Source: Escherichia phage Henu5_1. Taken from it: a stretch of 44,212 bases of DNA. A program made the translations under genes and the position numbers. The notes under the pieces were generated by a model. It made no database searches. It was not told where the DNA came from and saw nothing but the letters and a program-made list of their open reading frames with translations. Location: the sequence record PQ133007; one strand, 5' to 3'. Numbering within the stretch: the first letter of the stretch is position 1; every line of letters begins with the position of its first letter. Positions 1 to 44,212 of this stretch are shown piece after piece.

Positions 1-330
1 ATGAATGTAAACGACGCAATCGAAATGTTAACGAAGACTGTTTGCAGTGAGACAAGCCGGTCATGGGCTTATACCGATGCCGTGGGGGCGGTGTTATTTG
101 AAATCGAACGACTGCGCAGTGTCGAAAAAGAATTACGCGCCAGGCTGGAATTGCTCAACGGCACGGCAGCAAGCAAGCTGCAAAAACACAATGAAGAAAT
201 GGAAGAATACAAAAAGCAGGTTATCCGTTTGCGCGCCGAGGGAAAATCCTGGGCGATGATTGCCGAGTTAACCGGAATTAATCAGAGCACAGTGCGCTCC
301 TGGGTACGCAATAATAAAACTTCTAAGTAA
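1..330 (+). CDS. HTH-domain DNA-binding protein (may be 5'-truncated by window edge)
   Basis: ORF begins at base 1; C-terminal helix-turn-helix-like segment SWAMIAELTGINQSTVRSWV; a GAGGG RBS lies at the window 3' end if the genome is circularly permuted. Confidence 0.5.
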   Translation: MNVNDAIEMLTKTVCSETSRSWAYTDAVGAVLFEIERLRSVEKELRARLELLNGTAASKLQKHNEEMEEYKKQVIRLRAEGKSWAMIAELTGINQSTVRSWVRNNKTSK

Positions 331-340
331 GGCCACGGCA

Positions 341-2605
341 ATGAGCTTAATTAAATTCGCTGTAACACGACCCGCTAAAAAAGGCGAAAAAGCCAGGGCG
401 GAAAACTTCCAGATGACTACCGAAGAGTTTTTCGAATTTATCAATGACGCGAAAGAAATCTCCTCGGTGCATATCAACAAAACGGAAGATAAAGCCGAGT
501 ACGCCCGCCGCAAGCGTAAGGCCGATGGCATTGTGGCTTATACCAGTGATGGGCTGCGCCGCAAGACCAGTGCGGTGGACCGTTCGATCCTGTTCTTCGA
601 TATCGACCGTACCGACACCCGCACCCTACGCCGCTGCCGTAAGGCTTTCGTCGATGCGGGGCTGGAGCACGTATTCCATACAACAACCGGCGACCGCCAC
701 CCGCTGAAAGGCGGCACGCGTTGCGCACGTTTCCTTGTGCTCACGGACAAGCCTGTCTCGGCGGAAGACCTGGGCCGTGTCCAGTATGCGCTATTACACC
801 AACTGGGTCTGTCAGATGTGGACTTCGACGATTGCACGAAAGACACAAACCGCCTGATGTACCTGCCACACCAGCAGTCTGTTATTAAGTGCCACTATGG
901 CAAGCGCGCCCGCGTCCGTCGTCTGCTCCGCCTGGCGGATAAGCTGGGCGTGGAGAAAGAGGAAGTCCGCCGCGAGCTTACTCAGGGCGACGACGCAGTG
1001 GCAGACGGCATTCTGGACTGGTGCTTCCAGGCAGGATTCGAGGAGTTATCTTCCGGTCGCGGTTATGAAGTGCCGTGCCCGAACGAACATCTGCACAGCG
1101 GCGAAGGGTCGACGGCTATCATGGTCAAGGATGGCGAGATCCGTTTCAAGTGTATGCACACCGGTAACGAGTGTTGCTCGGAACTGAATAGACACCAGCA
1201 CCTGGCGCTACGTCTTATCGGGATCCCGGACCACCTGAACGTCGAGCCACACAATATGTCCCGTAAGCAAATCGCCGCCATCCTTCCGGGGCTGGACGAC
1301 GAGGAAGTCGAATCCTTATACGAACATATTGTTGATGCGGTTGGCGACGGCGAAGAATACGGCGTGTGCACCGATGCGGATCTGGATAACGAGCCGGTCG
1401 CGCTGTTCAGTAAGCACGACCCGATTATCGAGGGGTTGATTAACTTTAAATCGACCTGGTACATGGCGGGTGAGTCGAATATCGGTAAGTCTTTCTATGT
1501 GCTGGGCCAAATGGGCGCGGTTGCCGCAGGGATCCCGTTCGGCGGTGCGAAGGTCGTCCAGTCTCATTGCTTCTATTTCGACGCGGAAGGTGGTGAAGCC
1601 TCCAACCAGCGTAAGGAAGCATTGCAGATTAAATACGAGCACGACCTGGACAAGCTGCACATTATCGATCTGCAGTCACGCGGCTGGGATATCACCAGCA
1701 AGTCCGGCTTGCGTGAAGTTATCAGCTTTATCAACCGCACCGCTAACGGCGAACCGGTTGGCCTGGTGGCGTTCGACTCACTAAACCAGACTGTTGCGTT
1801 GCGGTCCGCTGATGCTAAACCGTTCGACGAGAACAACGCCAGCGATATGGGTGAAGTGGTCAAAGCGCTGAAGGCCATTGCGGAAAATACAGGAGGCAGT
1901 GCGGGCGTAATTCACCACCCGGCAAAAGGTGCAAACGGCAGCAGAACCCCACGCGGGTCCGGCGCGCTGCATGGTGCTGTCGATTCCGCTTTCTTCCTGG
2001 AACAGCCGGACGACAACCAGCCCGGACAATTGAACCTGTATCATGAGAAGTCCCGTAACGGCATCAAACAAGCGCCGCGCGGCTTCGTCCTGCTCAAGTG
2101 CAAGGTGAAGGTGGATCTCCGCAAGTCAGAAGCGTTCGCGTCGCACCAGTCCACCAGCACCGGGCCGGACTTCGGCGACGTTGTTGCCGGTTGGGACGTC
2201 AAACCAATTGCGTCCACGCCACGCGACGAGACTCTGTACCTCGTACCGGTCGCCCTGGCACCGTTCGCTATAGAACAGGCGAAGGCCGCGGGCAAAGCAG
2301 CAGTTAAGGAAGAGAACACCGCCGGTCCGCGCAACGAAAAAGAGAAAGTGCTTTATGCGGCCCTGGAAAAACTGATGGAAGATAACCCGAACCATACCGG
2401 CTTCAGTAAATCGGCAATTGTCCGCCAGGCTGGACTCGCGAAGGGTGGCACTTCGACGAAGGCAATCGACGATATGGTGGACCGCGGCGTGATTGGTTTC
2501 TATACAGATCCGCACACCGGGGCCATCTATGGGTCGTCGAATTTAGTCATCAAATCGGATATTCCCATAACGCTTTCGGCGACCGATGACGATCTAAAAG
2601 ATTAA
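341..2605 (+). CDS. DNA primase/helicase (primase-polymerase-like N-terminus plus RecA-like P-loop ATPase)
   Basis: 754 aa ORF; P-loop GESNIGKS in C-terminal half; size and layout typical of phage primase-helicase fusions. Confidence 0.65.
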   Translation: MSLIKFAVTRPAKKGEKARAENFQMTTEEFFEFINDAKEISSVHINKTEDKAEYARRKRKADGIVAYTSDGLRRKTSAVDRSILFFDIDRTDTRTLRRCRKAFVDAGLEHVFHTTTGDRHPLKGGTRCARFLVLTDKPVSAEDLGRVQYALLHQLGLSDVDFDDCTKDTNRLMYLPHQQSVIKCHYGKRARVRRLLRLADKLGVEKEEVRRELTQGDDAVADGILDWCFQAGFEELSSGRGYEVPCPNEHLHSGEGSTAIMVKDGEIRFKCMHTGNECCSELNRHQHLALRLIGIPDHLNVEPHNMSRKQIAAILPGLDDEEVESLYEHIVDAVGDGEEYGVCTDADLDNEPVALFSKHDPIIEGLINFKSTWYMAGESNIGKSFYVLGQMGAVAAGIPFGGAKVVQSHCFYFDAEGGEASNQRKEALQIKYEHDLDKLHIIDLQSRGWDITSKSGLREVISFINRTANGEPVGLVAFDSLNQTVALRSADAKPFDENNASDMGEVVKALKAIAENTGGSAGVIHHPAKGANGSRTPRGSGALHGAVDSAFFLEQPDDNQPGQLNLYHEKSRNGIKQAPRGFVLLKCKVKVDLRKSEAFASHQSTSTGPDFGDVVAGWDVKPIASTPRDETLYLVPVALAPFAIEQAKAAGKAAVKEENTAGPRNEKEKVLYAALEKLMEDNPNHTGFSKSAIVRQAGLAKGGTSTKAIDDMVDRGVIGFYTDPHTGAIYGSSNLVIKSDIPITLSATDDDLKD

Positions 2606-2664
2606 ATTTTGCGCGCATTGGTTGCCATTTTGTGTGCTTTTAGCTGGTCGCATTGGTTGCCGTG

Positions 2665-2870
2665 TAGTGTGAATATAATGCATAGTTATGCAATAAAACT
2701 GCATAAAGTAAGCGGGACAAAAAGCGGGACAAACCATGGGCGGGACAAAGCGGGACGGCACCCCTGTCCCGCCCGGATGACGCGGCCTGGCGAGGAGCGG
2801 GACAGGCGGGACAACTCCCAGTCTTTCAGACTAGACGGGGGTCAACGGCCCCCCTCGTCTGAGACTGCAT
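2665..2870. repeat. Iteron array: 7 copies of GCGGGACA/TGTCCCGC plus conserved hairpin (copy 1 of duplicated module)
   Basis: GCGGGACA at about 2712, 2724, 2740, 2750, 2797, 2806 and inverted TGTCCCGC at 2765; about 80 percent identical to 19495-19690. Confidence 0.7.
2819..2867. promoter_or_regulatory. Conserved 49-nt imperfect palindrome / stem-loop (copy 1)
   Basis: cagtct...agacggggg-loop-cccccctcgtct...agactg; outer and inner stems complementary; no adjacent T-run so not a canonical intrinsic terminator. Confidence 0.5.
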
Positions 2871-3026
2871 AAAATCCGGGATTGCAAAATACACGGCAGC
2901 ATGTCGCGGATTGCGGTCGTCGCTGAACTAGGCAACCAATGCGAGATGCAGAAAGCGGTGTGGAAAATGCAGTTTGCAGTTGCAACGGATAGCGATCGAC
3001 TTTTTCATGCGCATGATTAATATTGG

Positions 3027-3055
3027 TTGCATTCGTGCCAGCACCCTGCTAGATT
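3027..3055 (+). promoter_or_regulatory. Putative sigma70-like promoter (TTGCAT-17-TAGATT) overlapping two ATTGGTTGCA motifs
   Basis: -35 TTGCAT lies inside ATTGGTTGCAT; second motif copy overlaps -10/+1; about 25 nt upstream of GGAGG RBS of ORF 3083. Confidence 0.4.
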
Positions 3056-3082
3056 GGTTGCACACCAACAGGAGGGCGGAAC

Positions 3083-3459: not shown

Positions 3460-3729
3460 ATGACCCGTAGACGCGCAAAACAGCTTTCGTGGCATATCCC
3501 CCTGCATTGCATACGAATATGGGCTAAGAATGCGAATGCGGGGGACTCTGTGTACTGGTGCTATCGCGACGACGTTAAGCCGTTGACGCAGACTCGCTAC
3601 TTGCACCAGTTCGCCGCGCAACATGATTTCTATGTGCGGACCTCCTTGCAACCAATGGGGATCCGTATTACATTACGCCGGAAGCCCGCAGTCGAGCGGG
3701 TAGGCAAACACTGGAGACTGAGCAAATGA
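3460..3729 (+). CDS. Hypothetical early protein
   Basis: 89 aa track ORF; AAGAGG RBS upstream of ATG 3460. Confidence 0.6.
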   Translation: MTRRRAKQLSWHIPLHCIRIWAKNANAGDSVYWCYRDDVKPLTQTRYLHQFAAQHDFYVRTSLQPMGIRITLRRKPAVERVGKHWRLSK

Positions 3730-6521: not shown

Positions 6522-6552
6522 TTGACTTGCAACCAACATAGACGCCATACTG
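6522..6552 (+). promoter_or_regulatory. Putative promoter (TTGACT -35) with TGCAACCAAC motif in spacer
   Basis: TTGACT at 6522-6527; weak -10 CATACT; motif copies at 6527-6537 and about 6553-6561. Confidence 0.35.
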
Positions 6553-6580
6553 CGACCAATCAACGAGAGGAGTAATAAAG

Positions 6581-12996: not shown

Positions 12997-13761
12997 TTAT
13001 CGCGGAATGCCGCAAATCTCGTTGAGTGTTTTCACGTCCAGCGCCACTGCCGTGGATTTTGGCTTGTCCGGGTATGGGATGAATTGCTCAACTTCAGGCC
13101 ATGCCTTAATCAGCTTCTTGTCAGTATTGTGCAGGTCCAATACACCGGTAACGGTGAGTTTGAACGAATCATACTTCGCGCGCAACTCGCGACGGGCCTT
13201 GTCGTTGCGGTCCAGGCGCTTACAGAAGTCATGGTCCGCCGGGTAGTCTACGCGACCGCGTGGGAGATATATCGGCAGCGCTTTCCCGTCCTCGTCCACT
13301 TCGCACACTGACGCAAGCATAACCTCTTCGAACCCCGGTACGATATCGCCGAGATCGGGGGATAGCTTATTCATGTATTTATATTCCCAGTATCCGCGAT
13401 GTACGCGGTATCGGTAGCCGTCACCGCTCAAGGACAAGGTGCGAACATTTCCGCCTGCGTTGATTTCGAAAGCGGCGTCGTAAACGCTGCCGATACTTTT
13501 CGGGCGGTCGGTGTTATAACTATATGTCGCCTTGTTGGAGTAGACGCTGACGCCGTACATCTGCGACTGGTCATCGCGGATTAACAGGATATGCTCGCGT
13601 AGCGCGGCGAATGTGCGAATGCCGTCCGGCATACAGTCTAGCGTGATTGCGTACGCCAGGTCGCGAGAGTCCATCATAATTGTTTTGGCTTCGGTAGCGA
13701 TTTCGTGGTCGCGCAGGATGTTAGCCAGGATCTGATTTTTAATGTCTTTCGTCAGTCTCAT
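12997..13761 (-). CDS. Hypothetical protein, reverse-oriented gene inside the structural module (moron candidate)
   Basis: 254 aa from ATG at 13761 (GAGGA RBS) within track ORF 12997-13806; own promoter upstream; no recognisable motif. Confidence 0.6.
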   Translation of the reverse strand: MRLTKDIKNQILANILRDHEIATEAKTIMMDSRDLAYAITLDCMPDGIRTFAALREHILLIRDDQSQMYGVSVYSNKATYSYNTDRPKSIGSVYDAAFEINAGGNVRTLSLSGDGYRYRVHRGYWEYKYMNKLSPDLGDIVPGFEEVMLASVCEVDEDGKALPIYLPRGRVDYPADHDFCKRLDRNDKARRELRAKYDSFKLTVTGVLDLHNTDKKLIKAWPEVEQFIPYPDKPKSTAVALDVKTLNEICGIPR

Positions 13762-13790
13762 TTTTATGTCCTCGTTGTTGGTGTGCAACC

Positions 13791-13819
13791 AATATATTGC
13801 AACCAACCCCGCAATGCAA
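13791..13819 (-). promoter_or_regulatory. Putative promoter (TTGCAT-17-TATATT) with GCAACCAA motifs
   Basis: Minus-strand -35/-10 read from reverse complement; two motif copies at about 13784-13808. Confidence 0.4.
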
Positions 13820-29858: not shown

Positions 29859-29887
29859 AGTATTGCACCGCTCAACCAAGAATGCAA
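29859..29887 (-). promoter_or_regulatory. Putative promoter (TTGCAT-17-AATACT) with ATTGGTTGCAT motif
   Basis: -35 formed by motif copy at 29882-29893 read on minus strand. Confidence 0.4.
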
Positions 29888-29908
29888 CCAATTCATGAGG
29901 ATTCAGCT

Positions 29909-31730: not shown

Positions 31731-32304
31731 AGTTTGAGTTTTCCCAGTCCATTTTGCGCCGAACCAGCGGGCTTTCGTAGTATTCCTTTCCTTCCACTTC
31801 CACTAATGGCCAATCGTTCACGATCACGTATGGCTCTGCTATATCCTCAATAACACCGTGCGCACTATGCTGCCCGAACGACACACCGACCCGGATAACA
31901 CCGGCAACTCGACGGGCTAGATACTCGCGGGCACAACGTGCTTCCACCAGTCCGCGACGGATGCCGCTGGTAGCTTTTACCTCGTATGTCCAGACGGCAT
32001 CAATCATATGTTCGCGGAAGTCAGGGCCGGACTTAACCTTGCGCTTGCCAACCATGATAATATCGCCGCGGTCGATAGTGTTAGCGCTAAACAGGCCGGT
32101 ACGCATTAGCAAACCTTGCGGGATACAGCTACGCCCGCCCGCCTGCCCTTCGAGGTACATGCCTGCAAACATTTCACCCAGCACACCGACGAGTCTGCTT
32201 TGCTTGCACGCGTCGGACTTTAAGCGCCACTGGTCAAACTCGATGCTTGCAATCATTGCCGCCAGGTGGAATTGTTTACCGGTTATTTCATATTCGCCGT
32301 ACAT
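31729..32304 (-). CDS. Hypothetical protein
   Basis: 191 aa, ATG 32304 with GAGGGA RBS. Confidence 0.6.
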   Translation of the reverse strand: MYGEYEITGKQFHLAAMIASIEFDQWRLKSDACKQSRLVGVLGEMFAGMYLEGQAGGRSCIPQGLLMRTGLFSANTIDRGDIIMVGKRKVKSGPDFREHMIDAVWTYEVKATSGIRRGLVEARCAREYLARRVAGVIRVGVSFGQHSAHGVIEDIAEPYVIVNDWPLVEVEGKEYYESPLVRRKMDWENSN

Positions 32305-32345
32305 TGTGAATCCCTCATTGATGCGGGCCGAAGCCCGCGATTAAA

Positions 32346-32837
32346 TTATTTAAGTGCGCCAGTCACCAGTGTTTTTTCCATGTTACGGAAATCTTCCTGC
32401 GTCATGCAGATTTTCGATCCGTCTTCGCCCATGAGCACGACCATAGGTTGGACGTCCTGGGCTACAACTCCAAAATTGGCGGCGTTAACCGTCTTGCCCG
32501 CGGAAGAATGCCCGCCTTTTAGGCTGTCGAATTGTGCTGCCGTTGTATCGATCTGAATTTCGTCATGCACAGTCATGTAAGACTCGCCCAGCAGGGCGGC
32601 ATACGCCACCAGATCCACGATGTTATCTTCCTGGTGTTTACGGTGCTGGCGCACCAGCTTCAGGCAGATCAGGAAGGTCCAGGCTTCTTGCTCGGACAGG
32701 TCGCGCCCGGTAAGCGCGTTAAACACGGCAGCGATTTGTTTAGCGCTGCGTTCTTCTTTCGCGTTGTCATAGCCGTTTTCTTTCCCGCGCTGTTCCATAG
32801 TGGTGGCGGCGTTTTTGCAGTATTCGTATGCTTTCAC
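32346..32837 (-). CDS. Hypothetical protein
   Basis: Track ORF 32346-32915; GTG at 32837 with AAGGG RBS preferred (ATG 32798 is an alternative). Confidence 0.45.
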   Translation of the reverse strand: MKAYEYCKNAATTMEQRGKENGYDNAKEERSAKQIAAVFNALTGRDLSEQEAWTFLICLKLVRQHRKHQEDNIVDLVAYAALLGESYMTVHDEIQIDTTAAQFDSLKGGHSSAGKTVNAANFGVVAQDVQPMVVLMGEDGSKICMTQEDFRNMEKTLVTGALK

Positions 32838-32892
32838 AGTATTACCCTTTTTAGAGAGGGGGCTGTATTGCCCCCCGACACGTTTACTATAG

Positions 32893-32916
32893 TGCAACCA
32901 ACCTATTGGTTGCAAG
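32893..32916. promoter_or_regulatory. Palindromic double motif GCAACCAA-N4-TTGGTTGC
   Basis: Two motif copies as a perfect inverted repeat overlapping the 3' end of the HAD-like gene, upstream of gene 32837. Confidence 0.5.
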
Positions 32917-33373
32917 TGAATTTTGCAACGTTTATTGCGTAAATTTTCGGGACCAAATCACCACACGCCCGACGAATTGCCGCGATGTTCTTCTCGCAAT
33001 CTTCAATGATGACCAGTTCAGACACGTCCGCGTAGCAGACCATTTTGAACACGGCGCACGCCTTAAACTCTGGCGGCGGGGTGTCGTCCAGCATGTGGCG
33101 CATAAACAACCTGCCTACGGGGAAGACTTCCAGTTGTTCGGCGGTGGTGTCCCAACATTCACGCTGCCGGTTTGTCAGATACGCGATCTCGAAGCCTTGC
33201 TCTTTATACATGCGCAGTAGCGGCAGCATATCCATGTTCAGGTCTTCGCGGACGTGCGCCTTGTGCCACTTTGCCCAAAAGGTGGATTTCGTTTTTATCC
33301 CCGGCACCAGGTCGGCGCGCGCATCGCTTGATCCATTAATAACGCCATCCAGATCACAAATCAGTAATTTCAT
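32903..33373 (-). CDS. HAD-superfamily hydrolase-like protein
   Basis: N-terminal DLDGV (HAD motif I DxDG), downstream LTN (motif II); GAGGA RBS. Confidence 0.55.
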   Translation of the reverse strand: MKLLICDLDGVINGSSDARADLVPGIKTKSTFWAKWHKAHVREDLNMDMLPLLRMYKEQGFEIAYLTNRQRECWDTTAEQLEVFPVGRLFMRHMLDDTPPPEFKACAVFKMVCYADVSELVIIEDCEKNIAAIRRACGDLVPKIYAINVAKFTCNQ

Positions 33374-33594
33374 TTCAATTCCTCAATCAAATTTGCACGA
33401 ACACTACGGGCGGAAAACGTGTCACACACAAGATGACAGCGGGCAGTCATTACAAGCCAGCCAGTAAGGTCCATGCCCAGGAGGTGTTCCGGACGTGACA
33501 CACGACGCACTTTGTTCTCCCTCGGGTTGATTTGGTAGCGTTTAACAATTTCGTCCACGACGCGCATACTGCGGTCAACGATTAAGATATTCAC
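33370..33594 (-). CDS. Hypothetical protein
   Basis: 74 aa; GTG start with GGAGA RBS; overlaps both neighbours. Confidence 0.45.
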   Translation of the reverse strand: MNILIVDRSMRVVDEIVKRYQINPRENKVRRVSRPEHLLGMDLTGWLVMTARCHLVCDTFSARSVRANLIEELK

Positions 33595-34511: not shown

Positions 34512-34530
34512 CGTGTTGTCTCCAGGTATT

Positions 34531-34556
34531 AAAAAGGGCGTCCAACCGGACACCCT
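34531..34556 (-). terminator. Terminator-like hairpin on minus strand
   Basis: Minus-strand RNA AGGGUGUCC-GGUU-GGACGCCCU followed by UUUUU. Confidence 0.4.
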
Positions 34557-34557
34557 C

Positions 34558-34586
34558 AATATAATGCAACCAATCTAGTTATGCAA
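34558..34586 (-). promoter_or_regulatory. Putative promoter (TTGCAT-17-TATATT) built on two ATTGGTTGCAT motifs
   Basis: -35 inside motif at 34581-34592; second motif 34564-34574 overlaps spacer and -10. Confidence 0.5.
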
Positions 34587-34590
34587 CCAA

Positions 34591-37507: not shown

Positions 37508-37786
37508 TTAAGCGACCAATTCAGCAACCAATAAATCACAGTCGGCTATGCTGTCGATAACGCGAACGTCCGCACCGCGGCGGGCCATTCGCTCATGTTC
37601 TCGTACCTGGTGCGGCTTAGGTTTACCGCCTGGGCGCTTCACTTCGACGAAAACTATCTTGCCGTTGATGATGATTATAAGGTCGGGCGCTCCCGCGCGC
37701 CCCTCCCATGCCACTTTACGGCAGAATCCGCCGACGGCTTTAACCAACTTCATAAGGTGACTTTGGATCTTGCCTTCTGGTGTCAT
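37508..37786 (-). CDS. VRR-NUC domain nuclease
   Basis: GAPDLIIIINGKIVFVEVKRPGGKPKPHQ matches the PD-(D/E)xK VRR-NUC signature; start overlaps DNA polymerase stop. Confidence 0.6.
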   Translation of the reverse strand: MTPEGKIQSHLMKLVKAVGGFCRKVAWEGRAGAPDLIIIINGKIVFVEVKRPGGKPKPHQVREHERMARRGADVRVIDSIADCDLLVAELVA

Positions 37787-41034: not shown

Positions 41035-41099
41035 TTTCCAATTCCTCATTTTCACATGTATCGGGGTTATTATGAGCCGCCCCGTTCGGCTTGGTTGCC

Positions 41100-41128
41100 A
41101 ATTTACTTGGTTGCGCCTAAGCGGTCAA
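41100..41128 (-). promoter_or_regulatory. Putative promoter (TTGACC-17-TAAATT) with CAACCAAG motifs
   Basis: Motif copies 41091-41100 and 41107-41115 in spacer and just downstream of -10. Confidence 0.4.
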
Positions 41129-43268: not shown

Positions 43269-43811
43269 TTAATCTTCCAGTTCGAAATACGTTTCTACGA
43301 TTTCTTTCAATTCGGTGTGGAAGTCCGCCACGTCGTCGTCTTCCAGTTTAGCGATTGATTTGATCTCGAACGATTCCAGCAGGTCGTCGAATTCGTCGTT
43401 CGCATCATCATCATCGCCGCCTGCGATAATAGCGGCATACTGTTTGATTTCGTCGCGCATCTCTGCCAGCGGGTCGGCATCTTTCTTACCTTTGCCTTTC
43501 GCTGGTGCTTTTTTACCCTTCGCCGGTTTTTCGTCTTCGGCTTCATCATCCTCGTCGTCATCCTCTACGACTTCTTTTTTGGCCTTTCCTTTAGACTTGG
43601 TTTCTTTTGCCGCGCCTTTTTTCGCCTTTGGCGTATCTTCGACTTCGTCCTGATCGTCGTCTTCGACTTCGGTCTCCGGCTTGGCCTTGCCTTTCTTAGC
43701 GGTGCCGTTTGCTTTTTGGTCTACGGCAGCGCCCACAGTTTCATAATGTTTAGCGATGGTTTCCAGTGCTACTACGCCGCGAGTGATCAGGTTTACGATT
43801 TGCTCAAACAT
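43269..43811 (-). CDS. Lys/Asp/Glu-rich low-complexity protein, first gene of minus arm
   Basis: ATG 43811 with GGAGA RBS inside track ORF 43269-44039; alternating K-rich and D/E-rich blocks, strongly acidic C-terminus. Confidence 0.55.
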   Translation of the reverse strand: MFEQIVNLITRGVVALETIAKHYETVGAAVDQKANGTAKKGKAKPETEVEDDDQDEVEDTPKAKKGAAKETKSKGKAKKEVVEDDDEDDEAEDEKPAKGKKAPAKGKGKKDADPLAEMRDEIKQYAAIIAGGDDDDANDEFDDLLESFEIKSIAKLEDDDVADFHTELKEIVETYFELED

Positions 43812-44007: not shown

Positions 44008-44036
44008 ATATTAGATTGGTTGCAGAAGGGAGTCAA
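44008..44036 (-). promoter_or_regulatory. Strong sigma70-like promoter (TTGACT-17-TAATAT) for the minus arm
   Basis: Near-consensus hexamers with 17-bp spacer containing TGCAACCAAT; about 200 nt upstream of ATG 43811. Confidence 0.5.
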
Positions 44037-44152: not shown

Positions 44153-44181
44153 TTGACACCGTGCAGTTTTGGGTGTAGTTT
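44153..44181 (+). promoter_or_regulatory. Putative promoter (TTGACA-17-TAGTTT) reading toward the window end
   Basis: Consensus -35 TTGACA; followed by palindrome GTTGGT-N5-ACCAAC and GAGGG RBS at the last bases of the window. Confidence 0.3.
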
Positions 44182-44212
44182 CGTTGGTCATTAACCAACT
44201 GAGGGCAGAGCA

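Follow-up and report, generated by a model that had tools for sequence, protein, structure and literature searches.

Two copies of an 8-base word cover a predicted promoter core in an Escherichia phage of the genus Dhillonvirus, and their palindromic arrangement is one of several

The palindrome at 32893-32916 in the Escherichia phage Henu5_1 sequence (PQ133007; the whole stretch of 44,212 nucleotides that was analysed is called the window below) is probably a pair of adjacent sites for a phage-encoded, sequence-specific DNA-binding protein, laid over a predicted promoter core and, judging from the sequence, likely to repress it. The 8-base motif of which it is built is enriched in the window, tends to be paired, overlaps promoter-like hexamers and changes its orientation among relatives.

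A 6-kb query around the palindrome returned 159 phage records with 80-95% identity, nearly all of them Escherichia phages of the genus Dhillonvirus (HK578, JL1, SSL-2009a, YD-2008.s, B2, WFI), and the window is a Dhillonvirus, an HK578-like virulent siphophage of E. coli. Its genes are arranged as is usual in the genus: the plus strand up to 31.7 kb carries a small HTH gene (1-330), the primase-helicase gene (341-2605) and small early, lysis and structural genes, and the minus strand from 31.7 to 44 kb carries the DNA-metabolism genes. Dhillonviruses are in wide use in phage-defence work and therapy collections (BASEL phages, SECphi18, SECphi4); the searchable literature yielded nothing on the regulation of their transcription. 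A note on SECphi4 concerning cohesive ends near the palindrome region says only that the ends are unknown. The genes on both sides of the palindrome are as follows.

32903-33373, minus strand: HAD / polynucleotide-kinase-phosphatase-like gene, 156 aa, upstream of the palindrome (Pfam, PHROG)
32346-32837, minus strand: DUF6378 protein gene with a GTG start at 32837, downstream of the palindrome

In Pfam, the HAD-like product matched PF03767 at 3.6e-5 without reaching the gathering score; its PHROG match was to 415 (polynucleotide kinase), at 1.9e-36.

Positions 32893-32916 read TGCAACCAACCTATTGGTTGCAAG. Within them, GCAACCAA-CCTA-TTGGTTGC is exact at 32894-32913, giving the perfect 20-bp inverted repeat with a 4-bp centre that a sequence-only reading had described, and the arms can even be extended to 9 bp (32893-32914, TGCAACCAA-CCTA-TTGGTTGCA). 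The same reading was right about its location, just upstream of the gene that starts at 32837 and overlapping the 3' end of the HAD-like gene, since the TAG stop of the latter (32905-32903) lies in the palindrome centre; its last codons (C-N-Q) are encoded within the promoter-distal motif copy. The gene (minus) strand across the palindrome and promoter reads cacTTGCAACCAAtaggTTGGTTGCacTATAGTaaacgtg, on which the following elements were placed.

32910-32915, minus strand: -35-like hexamer TTGCAA (consensus matching, weight matrix)
32906-32913, minus strand: promoter-distal motif copy, GCAACCAA on the gene strand
32902-32905, no strand: 4-bp centre of the palindrome, CCTA on the plus and TAGG on the minus strand
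32894-32901, plus strand: promoter-proximal motif copy, GCAACCAA on the plus strand and TTGGTTGC on the gene strand
32886-32891, minus strand: -10-like hexamer TATAGT, in relatives TATATT or TACATT (consensus matching, weight matrix)
32857-32876, minus strand: GC-rich stem-loop, putative 5'-UTR hairpin of the DUF6378 mRNA (folding)

The hexamers TTGCAA-18-TATAGT are of the sigma-70 type and match the consensus at 9 of 12 positions, and the palindrome fills the -35 region and the spacer: the distal copy corresponds to -34..-27 and provides most of the -35 hexamer, and the proximal copy corresponds to -22..-15, with the -10 hexamer 2 bp downstream. This promoter scored 10.6 and ranked 9 among all sites of the window on both strands, by a simple weight matrix whose approximate values follow published compilations; the call is one of consensus matching, and its -35 score is partly due to the motif itself. 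The putatively active promoter would read into the DUF6378 gene (start 32837) and the next gene. The stem-loop begins about 3 nt past the predicted transcription start (~32879), and the 48-nt stretch that contains it (32838-32885) folds with -16.2 kcal/mol (z = -2.3); among relatives the stem sequence varies, with the pairing mostly kept. It fits a 5'-UTR hairpin, which would place the start of transcription near 32879.

The word itself is strongly over-represented. GCAACCAA occurs 20 times in the window versus 1.94 ± 1.45 times in shuffled sequences (0 of 100 shuffles reach 20), and non-coding DNA, which makes up 8.2% of the window, contains 15 of them (binomial P = 6e-13; coding and non-coding DNA were separated with gene positions taken over from phage WFI). 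Variants with one mismatch are close to the background level (44 matches for 24 variants) with the exceptions of GCGACCAA and TCAACCAA, each of which adjoins exact copies. Each of seven Dhillonvirus genomes, one of them incomplete (39.5 of 44.2 kb), has 18-21 copies, and in contigs only ~71% identical to the window the word is still the top or a near-top 8-mer. A logo of 140 distinct sites from ten genomes or loci gave 8 invariant bases with a weak T on each side, and it revealed no flanking element at a fixed distance. Close pairing of the copies also exceeds chance (P = 0.0016 for at least four close pairs). No description of the motif was found in the searchable literature, where searches with the sequence gave only primers. 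A scan of viral contigs for the direct 12-bp pair was swamped by apparently unrelated tandem repeats, a call based solely on multi-copy matches spaced by 24 bp in unrelated contigs.

The further sites of the set in the window are these.

2606-3082, no strand: five copies (2618 minus, 2653 minus, 2932 plus, 3023 minus, 3054 minus), non-coding, right after the primase-helicase gene
3648-3655, plus strand: single copy that makes up the -35 of TTGCAA-17-TACATT, ahead of gene 3866
6529-6559, plus strand: exact copy beside a -35 (TTGACT) and variant GCGACCAA just past the -10 (CATACT)
13785-13806, plus strand: direct pair, 14-bp offset, over the spacer and -10/+1 of the Nmad5 minus-strand promoter TTGCAT-17-TATATT
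29872-29891, plus strand: variant TCAACCAA and exact copy, direct, 12-bp offset, in the divergent intergenic region before the tail-fibre gene
34566-34590, plus strand: direct pair, 17-bp offset, covering -35 and spacer of TTGCAT-17-TATATT, a minus-strand promoter
37512-37531, plus strand: variant GCGACCAA and exact copy, direct, 12-bp offset, upstream of a minus-strand TATAGT
41091-41114, minus strand: direct pair, 16-bp offset, over the spacer and +1 of the promoter TTGACC-17-TAAATT
44016-44023, minus strand: single copy within the spacer of TTGACT-17-TAATAT, the leftward early promoter (44008-44036)

The 477-bp gap at 2606-3082 holds the densest motif cluster of the window, which is iteron-like and a candidate origin and/or promoter cluster. 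The pair at 41091-41114 lies upstream of the genes for the ssDNA-binding protein and DNA polymerase, and the GCGACCAA variant at 6529-6559 is an exact copy in WFI and Bas84. Nmad5, whose promoter carries the pair at 13785-13806, is deletable (PMC11846954). Some late genes are also preceded by the motif (6529, 13785/13799, 29884), and a simple model of early shut-off does not explain these copies.

Seven of the best 12 sigma-70-like sites in the window overlap a motif copy, which bears out the tie to promoters implied when the sequence-only reading called the word a promoter motif. In five of the seven strong motif-bearing promoters, a copy holds the -22..-15 register in either orientation, and other copies are found at -39..-32, -34..-27, -29..-22, -8..-1 and across +1. 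Because both register and orientation vary and no element lies at a fixed distance, the word should be regarded as a binding site overlapping promoters and not as a promoter element in the sense of that label. On this placement, the word is a compact asymmetric site laid over predicted promoter cores, which is an operator layout.

By comparing the close pairs in ten genomes or loci (the window, another five complete and one incomplete Dhillonvirus genome, and three contigs that are more divergent), we found 31 direct and 5 convergent ones, and all 5 convergent pairs represent the palindrome locus; the earlier observation that the half-site elsewhere occurs as direct repeats thus applies to every other close pair, and no dyad was seen at the other sites of the set. 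The offsets range from 9 to 17 bp, and the 12-bp centre-to-centre offset of the palindrome is also found in the direct pairs 29872/29884 and 37512/37524. Perfect inverted repeats with arms of at least 8 bp are not enriched in the window (14 registers versus 9.9 ± 3.8 simulated), and with 15 motif copies in 3.6 kb of non-coding DNA the chance of one convergent pair at an offset of 8-18 bp is ~0.14. The motif, its pairing and the conservation of the palindrome site are above chance, and the palindromic geometry is not.

The orthologous sites lead to the same view. The palindrome is exact in YD-2008.s, WFI, SECphi18, Kente, HK578 and 13 of 14 IMG/VR relatives (18 of 21 related sequences), in two of which, of the Envy/Gluttony type, the centre is inverted, so that the gene strand reads CCTA there and not TAGG. 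In Bas84 and slur05 one arm is flipped, leaving the direct repeat GCAACCAA-taat-GCAACCAA followed by TACATT or TATATT, and LM40P1 has TTGGTTGC-N9-TTGGTTGC-ac-TATATT, a direct pair of the opposite orientation with a 17-bp offset, so that dyad symmetry is not maintained in these three phages. In all three architectures, TTGCAA stands at a distance of 17-18 bp from TATAGT, TATATT or TACATT (17 bp upstream of the -10 in Bas84, slur05 and LM40P1). The gene upstream has been replaced in LM40P1 and the motif pair retained, indicating that the pair belongs with the downstream promoter. What is conserved at the locus is, as far as these alignments tell, two copies at a promoter; the mirror symmetry is not conserved and appears incidental. 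Since two copies are kept and symmetry is not, the chain from palindrome to dimer to best operator is unsupported: neither the proposal that the geometry is the functional point, as for a symmetric dimer, nor the suggestion that this site is the strongest operator of the set agrees with relatives that lack the symmetry and have the promoter hexamers, or with the direct order of all other close pairs.

Two products encoded near the left end of the window are candidates for the protein that reads the word, and the genes of both belong to the first rightward early operon.

1-330, plus strand: candidate binder 1, 109-aa protein with a long helix and a C-terminal HTH (Pfam, structure model)
341-2605, plus strand: candidate binder 2, primase-helicase (AAA_25), with the densest motif cluster directly 3' of the gene

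The 109-aa protein, encoded by the first gene of that operon, matched HTH_23, HTH_28 and Sigma70_r4_2 in Pfam, all above the gathering cut-offs, and is the only recognisable sequence-specific DNA-binding protein in the window; the other small window proteins that were tested gave nothing comparable to these HTH matches. Its model (pLDDT 83.7) consists of a 59-residue helix followed by a three-helix HTH, and a Foldseek search of the PDB returned generic HTH matches only (resolvase, LuxR/GerE, DeoR, sigma-4; E of at least 0.7), so that no family could be assigned. Homologues are limited to Dhillonvirus-like genomes, and in them the C-terminal ~60 residues are nearly invariant and the N-terminal ~45 hypervariable; even the 142-aa homologue of HK578, 40% identical overall, is still almost invariant in its C-terminal part. 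This pattern fits a protein with a fixed DNA target. The divergent L025, L027 and L028 have a motif copy in the interval from the -10 to the ATG of their own HTH gene; in them, two copies fill the whole spacer of a TTGAC-type promoter (e.g., TTGAC[GCAACCAA]c[GCAACCAA]tcTAGTAT), and 4-5 copies are clustered after the primase-helicase gene.

Co-occurrence fails as proof for the 109-aa protein. Edwardsiella phage eiAU-183 (Eiauvirus), whose primase-helicase is 47% identical to that of the window, has 23 exact copies of GCAACCAA, 9 of them within ~770 bp directly after the primase-helicase gene and further ones in promoter-like contexts of the same design (e.g., GCAACCAAcaatGCAACCAAttt-TATAGT), and it has no detectable homologue of the 109-aa protein, whose place is taken by a Cro/XRE-type HTH. 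Hafnia phage TS33 and Salmonella phage SE1 (Guernseyvirinae), with primase-helicases 43-44% identical to that of the window, are without GCAACCAA and carry the one-base variant CAGCCAAC(AT) at the 3' end of and just after the primase-helicase gene, where 5 of 9 variant copies in TS33 and 3 of 4 in SE1 are clustered (genome or locus copies); the variant word of the TS33 type is GCAGCCAA. GCA(A/G)CCAA resembles a family of iterons linked to the replication module, and in Dhillonvirus and Eiauvirus this family seems to have been planted in promoters as well. The motif base specific to each lineage suggests a co-evolving phage protein rather than a host factor. The C-terminal winged-helix-like region of the primase-helicase was rejected as the determinant of the motif, because it is conserved with the variant-motif phages and not with eiAU-183, and phyletic profiling against eiAU-183 and TS33, with three taxa too few for the purpose, left only Dam, HNH, Nmad5 and structural proteins matching the motif distribution. 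Subjectively, we give about one third of the weight to the primase-helicase or another conserved replication protein as the binder, about one third to the 109-aa HTH protein, and the rest to another phage protein or the host.

Several known systems resemble parts of this picture. The operators of lambda OR/OL (cI, Cro), P22 Arc/Mnt and tetO/TetR overlap sigma-70 promoter cores, and the sites described here are likewise short and specific, lie over the -35, spacer, -10 or +1, often form adjacent pairs and recur at several promoters of one phage. However, those operators are dyads for symmetric dimers, whereas the word here is an asymmetric ~10 bp, mostly in direct repeats, and differs from these operators in its offsets of 9-17 bp, its use in either orientation, its dozen or more loci and its occurrence in a virulent phage. 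In pPS10 RepA, F RepE and R6K pi, one half-site is repeated directly at the origin and occurs as an inverted pair in a promoter, and the alpha primase-helicase of phage P4 has 8-bp type I iterons (TGTTCACC). The Dhillonvirus word resembles these in forming clustered direct repeats of 8 bp beside a replication-initiator gene with an inverted pair in a promoter elsewhere, and in having a variant that follows replication-module lineage. Here, however, the inverted pair lies away from the promoter of the initiator gene, copies are scattered over most of the early and middle promoters, and the C-terminal domain of the candidate primase-helicase does not track the motif. The DNA-binding domains of AraC and CytR are flexibly tethered and can bind half-sites in direct or inverted order, and MarA/SoxS/Rob bind as monomers in either orientation. 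Flipped orientation and variable spacing are similarly tolerated here at functionally equivalent sites, but the 109-aa candidate has no sequence relationship to these proteins and only the generic structural matches given above. A phage-specific word near -30 of post-earliest promoters, together with an HTH protein from an early gene, recalls the T4 MotA box and Mu Mor/C; the MotA box, though, takes the place of the -35 and is constant in position and orientation, while here both vary and -35 hexamers are present.

The alternatives differ first in whether the symmetry matters. The palindrome could be the optimal, highest-affinity operator of a symmetric dimeric repressor, single and direct copies being weaker; the perfect dyad with its 9-bp arms, its retention in most of the related sequences and the long helix of the HTH candidate, which in the model could form a coiled-coil dimer, speak for this. 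We consider it improbable, because Bas84/slur05 (one arm flipped) and LM40P1 (changes in both arms) retain the promoter geometry, because the 31 other close pairs are direct with varied offsets, because the direct repeats at 29872/29884 and 37512/37524 share the 12-bp offset, and because one convergent pair is unsurprising at this motif density. The symmetry could also act in RNA, as a stem-loop ending the HAD-gene message (stabiliser, processing site or terminator). A 9-bp hairpin is indeed predicted (-11.7 kcal/mol, z = -3.1) and a consensus scan lists the palindrome as terminator-like on the plus strand, yet no plus-strand gene ends there, the gene strand continues after the stem with CUAUAGUAAACG, which has no U-run, and only 4 of 9 stem pairs are GC, short of an intrinsic terminator. 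The hairpin is impossible in Bas84, slur05 and LM40P1, where the arms are direct, the arm word recurs elsewhere without a partner, and an Rfam 15 scan of 32300-33500 gave 0 matches at E ≤ 1. Orientation turnover, the missing U-run and the lack of an Rfam match together argue against a function as an RNA hairpin, which we regard as extremely unlikely.

Other alternatives accept the word as a protein site and change what the protein does or where it comes from. If the word were a replication iteron, the site would mainly be a replisome-loading or secondary-origin element with its effect on transcription a by-product. The densest clusters always follow the primase-helicase gene (2606-3082, eiAU-183, and L025, L027 and L028), the one-base variant of TS33/SE1 clusters at the same place, and direct repeats predominate as in iterons, so the motif family as a whole shows direct copies clustered in non-coding DNA beside an initiator gene. 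The palindrome locus, 30 kb away, lacks this clustering and has no AT-rich unwinding element beside it; it and most dispersed copies sit precisely in promoter cores with a recurrent -22..-15 register, and a dozen origins in a 44-kb genome are implausible. A purely replicative role thus seems plausible for the 2606-3082 cluster and unlikely for the dozen promoter-embedded loci, and we take the iteron explanation of the palindrome to be unlikely. The motif may instead be a positive promoter element through which a phage activator recruits or re-targets host RNA polymerase and turns on middle and late promoters. In the GenBank record of HK578, the annotated near-consensus sigma-70 promoters are confined to the divergent early region, Sigma70_r4_2 is among the Pfam matches of the candidate protein, and the motif precedes replication-gene operons and some structural-gene operons. 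Nevertheless, its position and orientation relative to the -10 vary (-39..-32 to +1), which makes activation of the MotA or Mor type less likely; the motif-bearing promoters already own a good -35 at 17-18 bp (TTGACC, TTGACT, TTGCAA), and the two-copy filled spacer of L025, L027 and L028 is a repressor-like layout. An activator is unlikely here. Finally, a host (Enterobacterales) transcription factor might bind the word, as the motif is common to E. coli and Edwardsiella phages that differ in their early HTH gene. Against this, Salmonella and Hafnia phages have the lineage-specific one-base variant, and a search of bacterial genomes (596 Gb) for the palindrome gave scattered matches only, by our estimate roughly at the chance level for a 16-base pattern, with no sign of a host operator and no Escherichia records among the 80 listed of 120 retrieved bacterial stretches. 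We know of no E. coli factor with the consensus tGCAACCAAt, and a host binder is very unlikely. The sigma-54 promoter and the NtrC, GntR-type (PdhR/ExuR) and CytR sites were set aside by inspection for misfit of sequence or geometry.

According to the above-described comparison, we prefer two adjacent operator-like sites for a phage protein. The recognition word would be the compact asymmetric tGCAACCAAt, read at a dozen or more loci of the genome, and at 32894-32913 its two copies would cover the -35 and spacer (-34..-27, -22..-15) of the minus-strand sigma-70-type promoter. That the site binds a protein at all is very probable; we infer the phage origin of this protein and its repressing action from the sequence. 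A bound protein would compete with RNA polymerase, so its likeliest effect would be repression, a timed shut-off of an early or middle operon, and with good -35/-10 hexamers at 17-18 bp and sites over the -35, spacer or start, occlusion is the simplest reading. The direction of regulation is deduced from position only, and some spacer-binding proteins, such as those of the MerR type, activate. Each copy would be read singly or by a flexibly linked oligomer, so that the head-to-head order would not be needed and would have arisen by accident in one lineage. Negative feedback and timed shut-off may come from the copy that the leftward early promoter (44008-44036) carries in its spacer. If the binder is the primase-helicase or another protein of the replication module, the word would be an iteron doubling as an operator.

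A bolder form of the latter idea, which we offer as a speculation with little weight, is that GCAACCAA is the word recognised by the replication-initiation machinery (the primase-helicase or a partner encoded next to it) and that this protein also acts as a global transcription switch. The origin iterons and the copies in nearly every early and middle promoter would then link replication onset with promoter shut-off, or else with transcription-primed initiation, and another oligomeric form than the one at the direct repeats would read the head-to-head pair at 32894-32913, as in iteron plasmids.

The regulon appears undescribed, yet of a familiar kind. The palindrome itself adds little, being one of several equivalent arrangements. 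The cluster at the primase-helicase gene and the variant in the sister subfamily hint at a shared origin/operator code in three enterobacterial siphophage groups. An 8-base word on most early and middle promoters is a ready map of Dhillonvirus transcription units, and it offers a regulator-operator pair and an engineering handle for tuning or silencing operons and for orthogonal switches.

Directly 3' of the primase-helicase gene lies an iteron-like cluster of the 8-base motif GCAACCAA, a putative protein-binding word, and such a cluster is present in all lineages examined (Dhillonvirus, Eiauvirus and Guernseyvirinae). The clusters lie at the following positions (L-numbers are handles of fetched sequences):

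2606-3082, the window
L188:26870-27635, Edwardsiella phage eiAU-183
L185:10816-11187, Hafnia phage TS33
L186:5263-5591, Salmonella phage SE1

The cluster word is GCAACCAA in Dhillonvirus and Eiauvirus and CAGCCAAC, one base different, in Guernseyvirinae. The cluster behind the primase-helicase gene is a candidate replication origin.

The HTH gene (1-330, +) has its own promoter, directly behind which lies TTGGTcattAACCAA (44182-44212 joined to 1):

44153-44181, HTH gene promoter, TTGACA-17-TAGTTT

TTGGTcattAACCAA consists of two degenerate half-words in inverted order, and divergent relatives carry an exact GCAACCAA at the matching position; the half-words may mediate autoregulation of the HTH gene. 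In the 109-aa product, the C-terminal ~60 residues are nearly invariant in all relatives and the N-terminal ~45 are hypervariable, the N-terminus of HK578-type phages being longer and unrelated. GenBank labels for this gene conflict (transposase, resolvase, "Gam nuclease inhibitor").

A strong intrinsic terminator at 34530-34557 (- strand; 10-bp stem plus UUUUU, -17.3 kcal/mol) starts right behind the -10 hexamer of the motif-bearing promoter at 34558-34586. Transcripts initiating at this promoter would have their 5' end inside the 5' arm of the terminator and so escape termination, while read-through arriving from upstream of the promoter would be halted there. Two other promoters have a longer block in common, TTGGTGTGCAACCAAT (3046-3061 and 13777-13792), whose transcribed strand reads TTGGTTGCACACCAACA and then continues into a Shine-Dalgarno sequence; with its internal TTGGT/ACCAA inverted repeat, the block would be expected to form a small hairpin at the mRNA 5' end.

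At the palindrome formed by two convergent motif copies (32894-32913), the 4-bp centre (32902-32905) is flipped from TAGG to CCTA in one lineage, the Envy/Gluttony type (L022 and L024). There the stop codon of the HAD gene is lost and its reading frame is longer by ~16 codons. The flip resembles an inversion mediated by a hairpin more than it does four independent base changes.

Two minus-strand genes deserve mention:

13000-13761, -, Nmad5 (nucleotide-modification-associated) gene
43269-43811, -, first gene of the leftward early operon, 180-aa protein, PHROG 3127

The Nmad5 gene is the lone minus-strand gene within the structural module, and its promoter holds two motif copies; according to a published study, the gene can be deleted, and phages with point mutations in it escape the Tmn defence system (PMC11846954). 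The 180-aa protein has an extremely high Asp, Glu and Lys content; its gene starts ~190 nt downstream of its promoter and therefore has a long leader.

A second 8-mer unrelated to GCAACCAA, ACGGCARC, occurs 51 times across the window (4.8 +/- 2.2 expected), or ~1 per 870 bp. Six example positions are:

163, 1935, 9423, 17104, 26138, 43723

Nearly all copies (47/51) are intragenic, 34 sense and 13 antisense, with all three reading frames represented. TS33 (Guernseyvirinae) holds 52 copies; eiAU-183, where ACGGCAAC alone was counted, holds 18. ACGGCARC is no promoter word; possible functions are as a signal for a primase or helicase, as a target of DNA modification or as a Chi-like signal.
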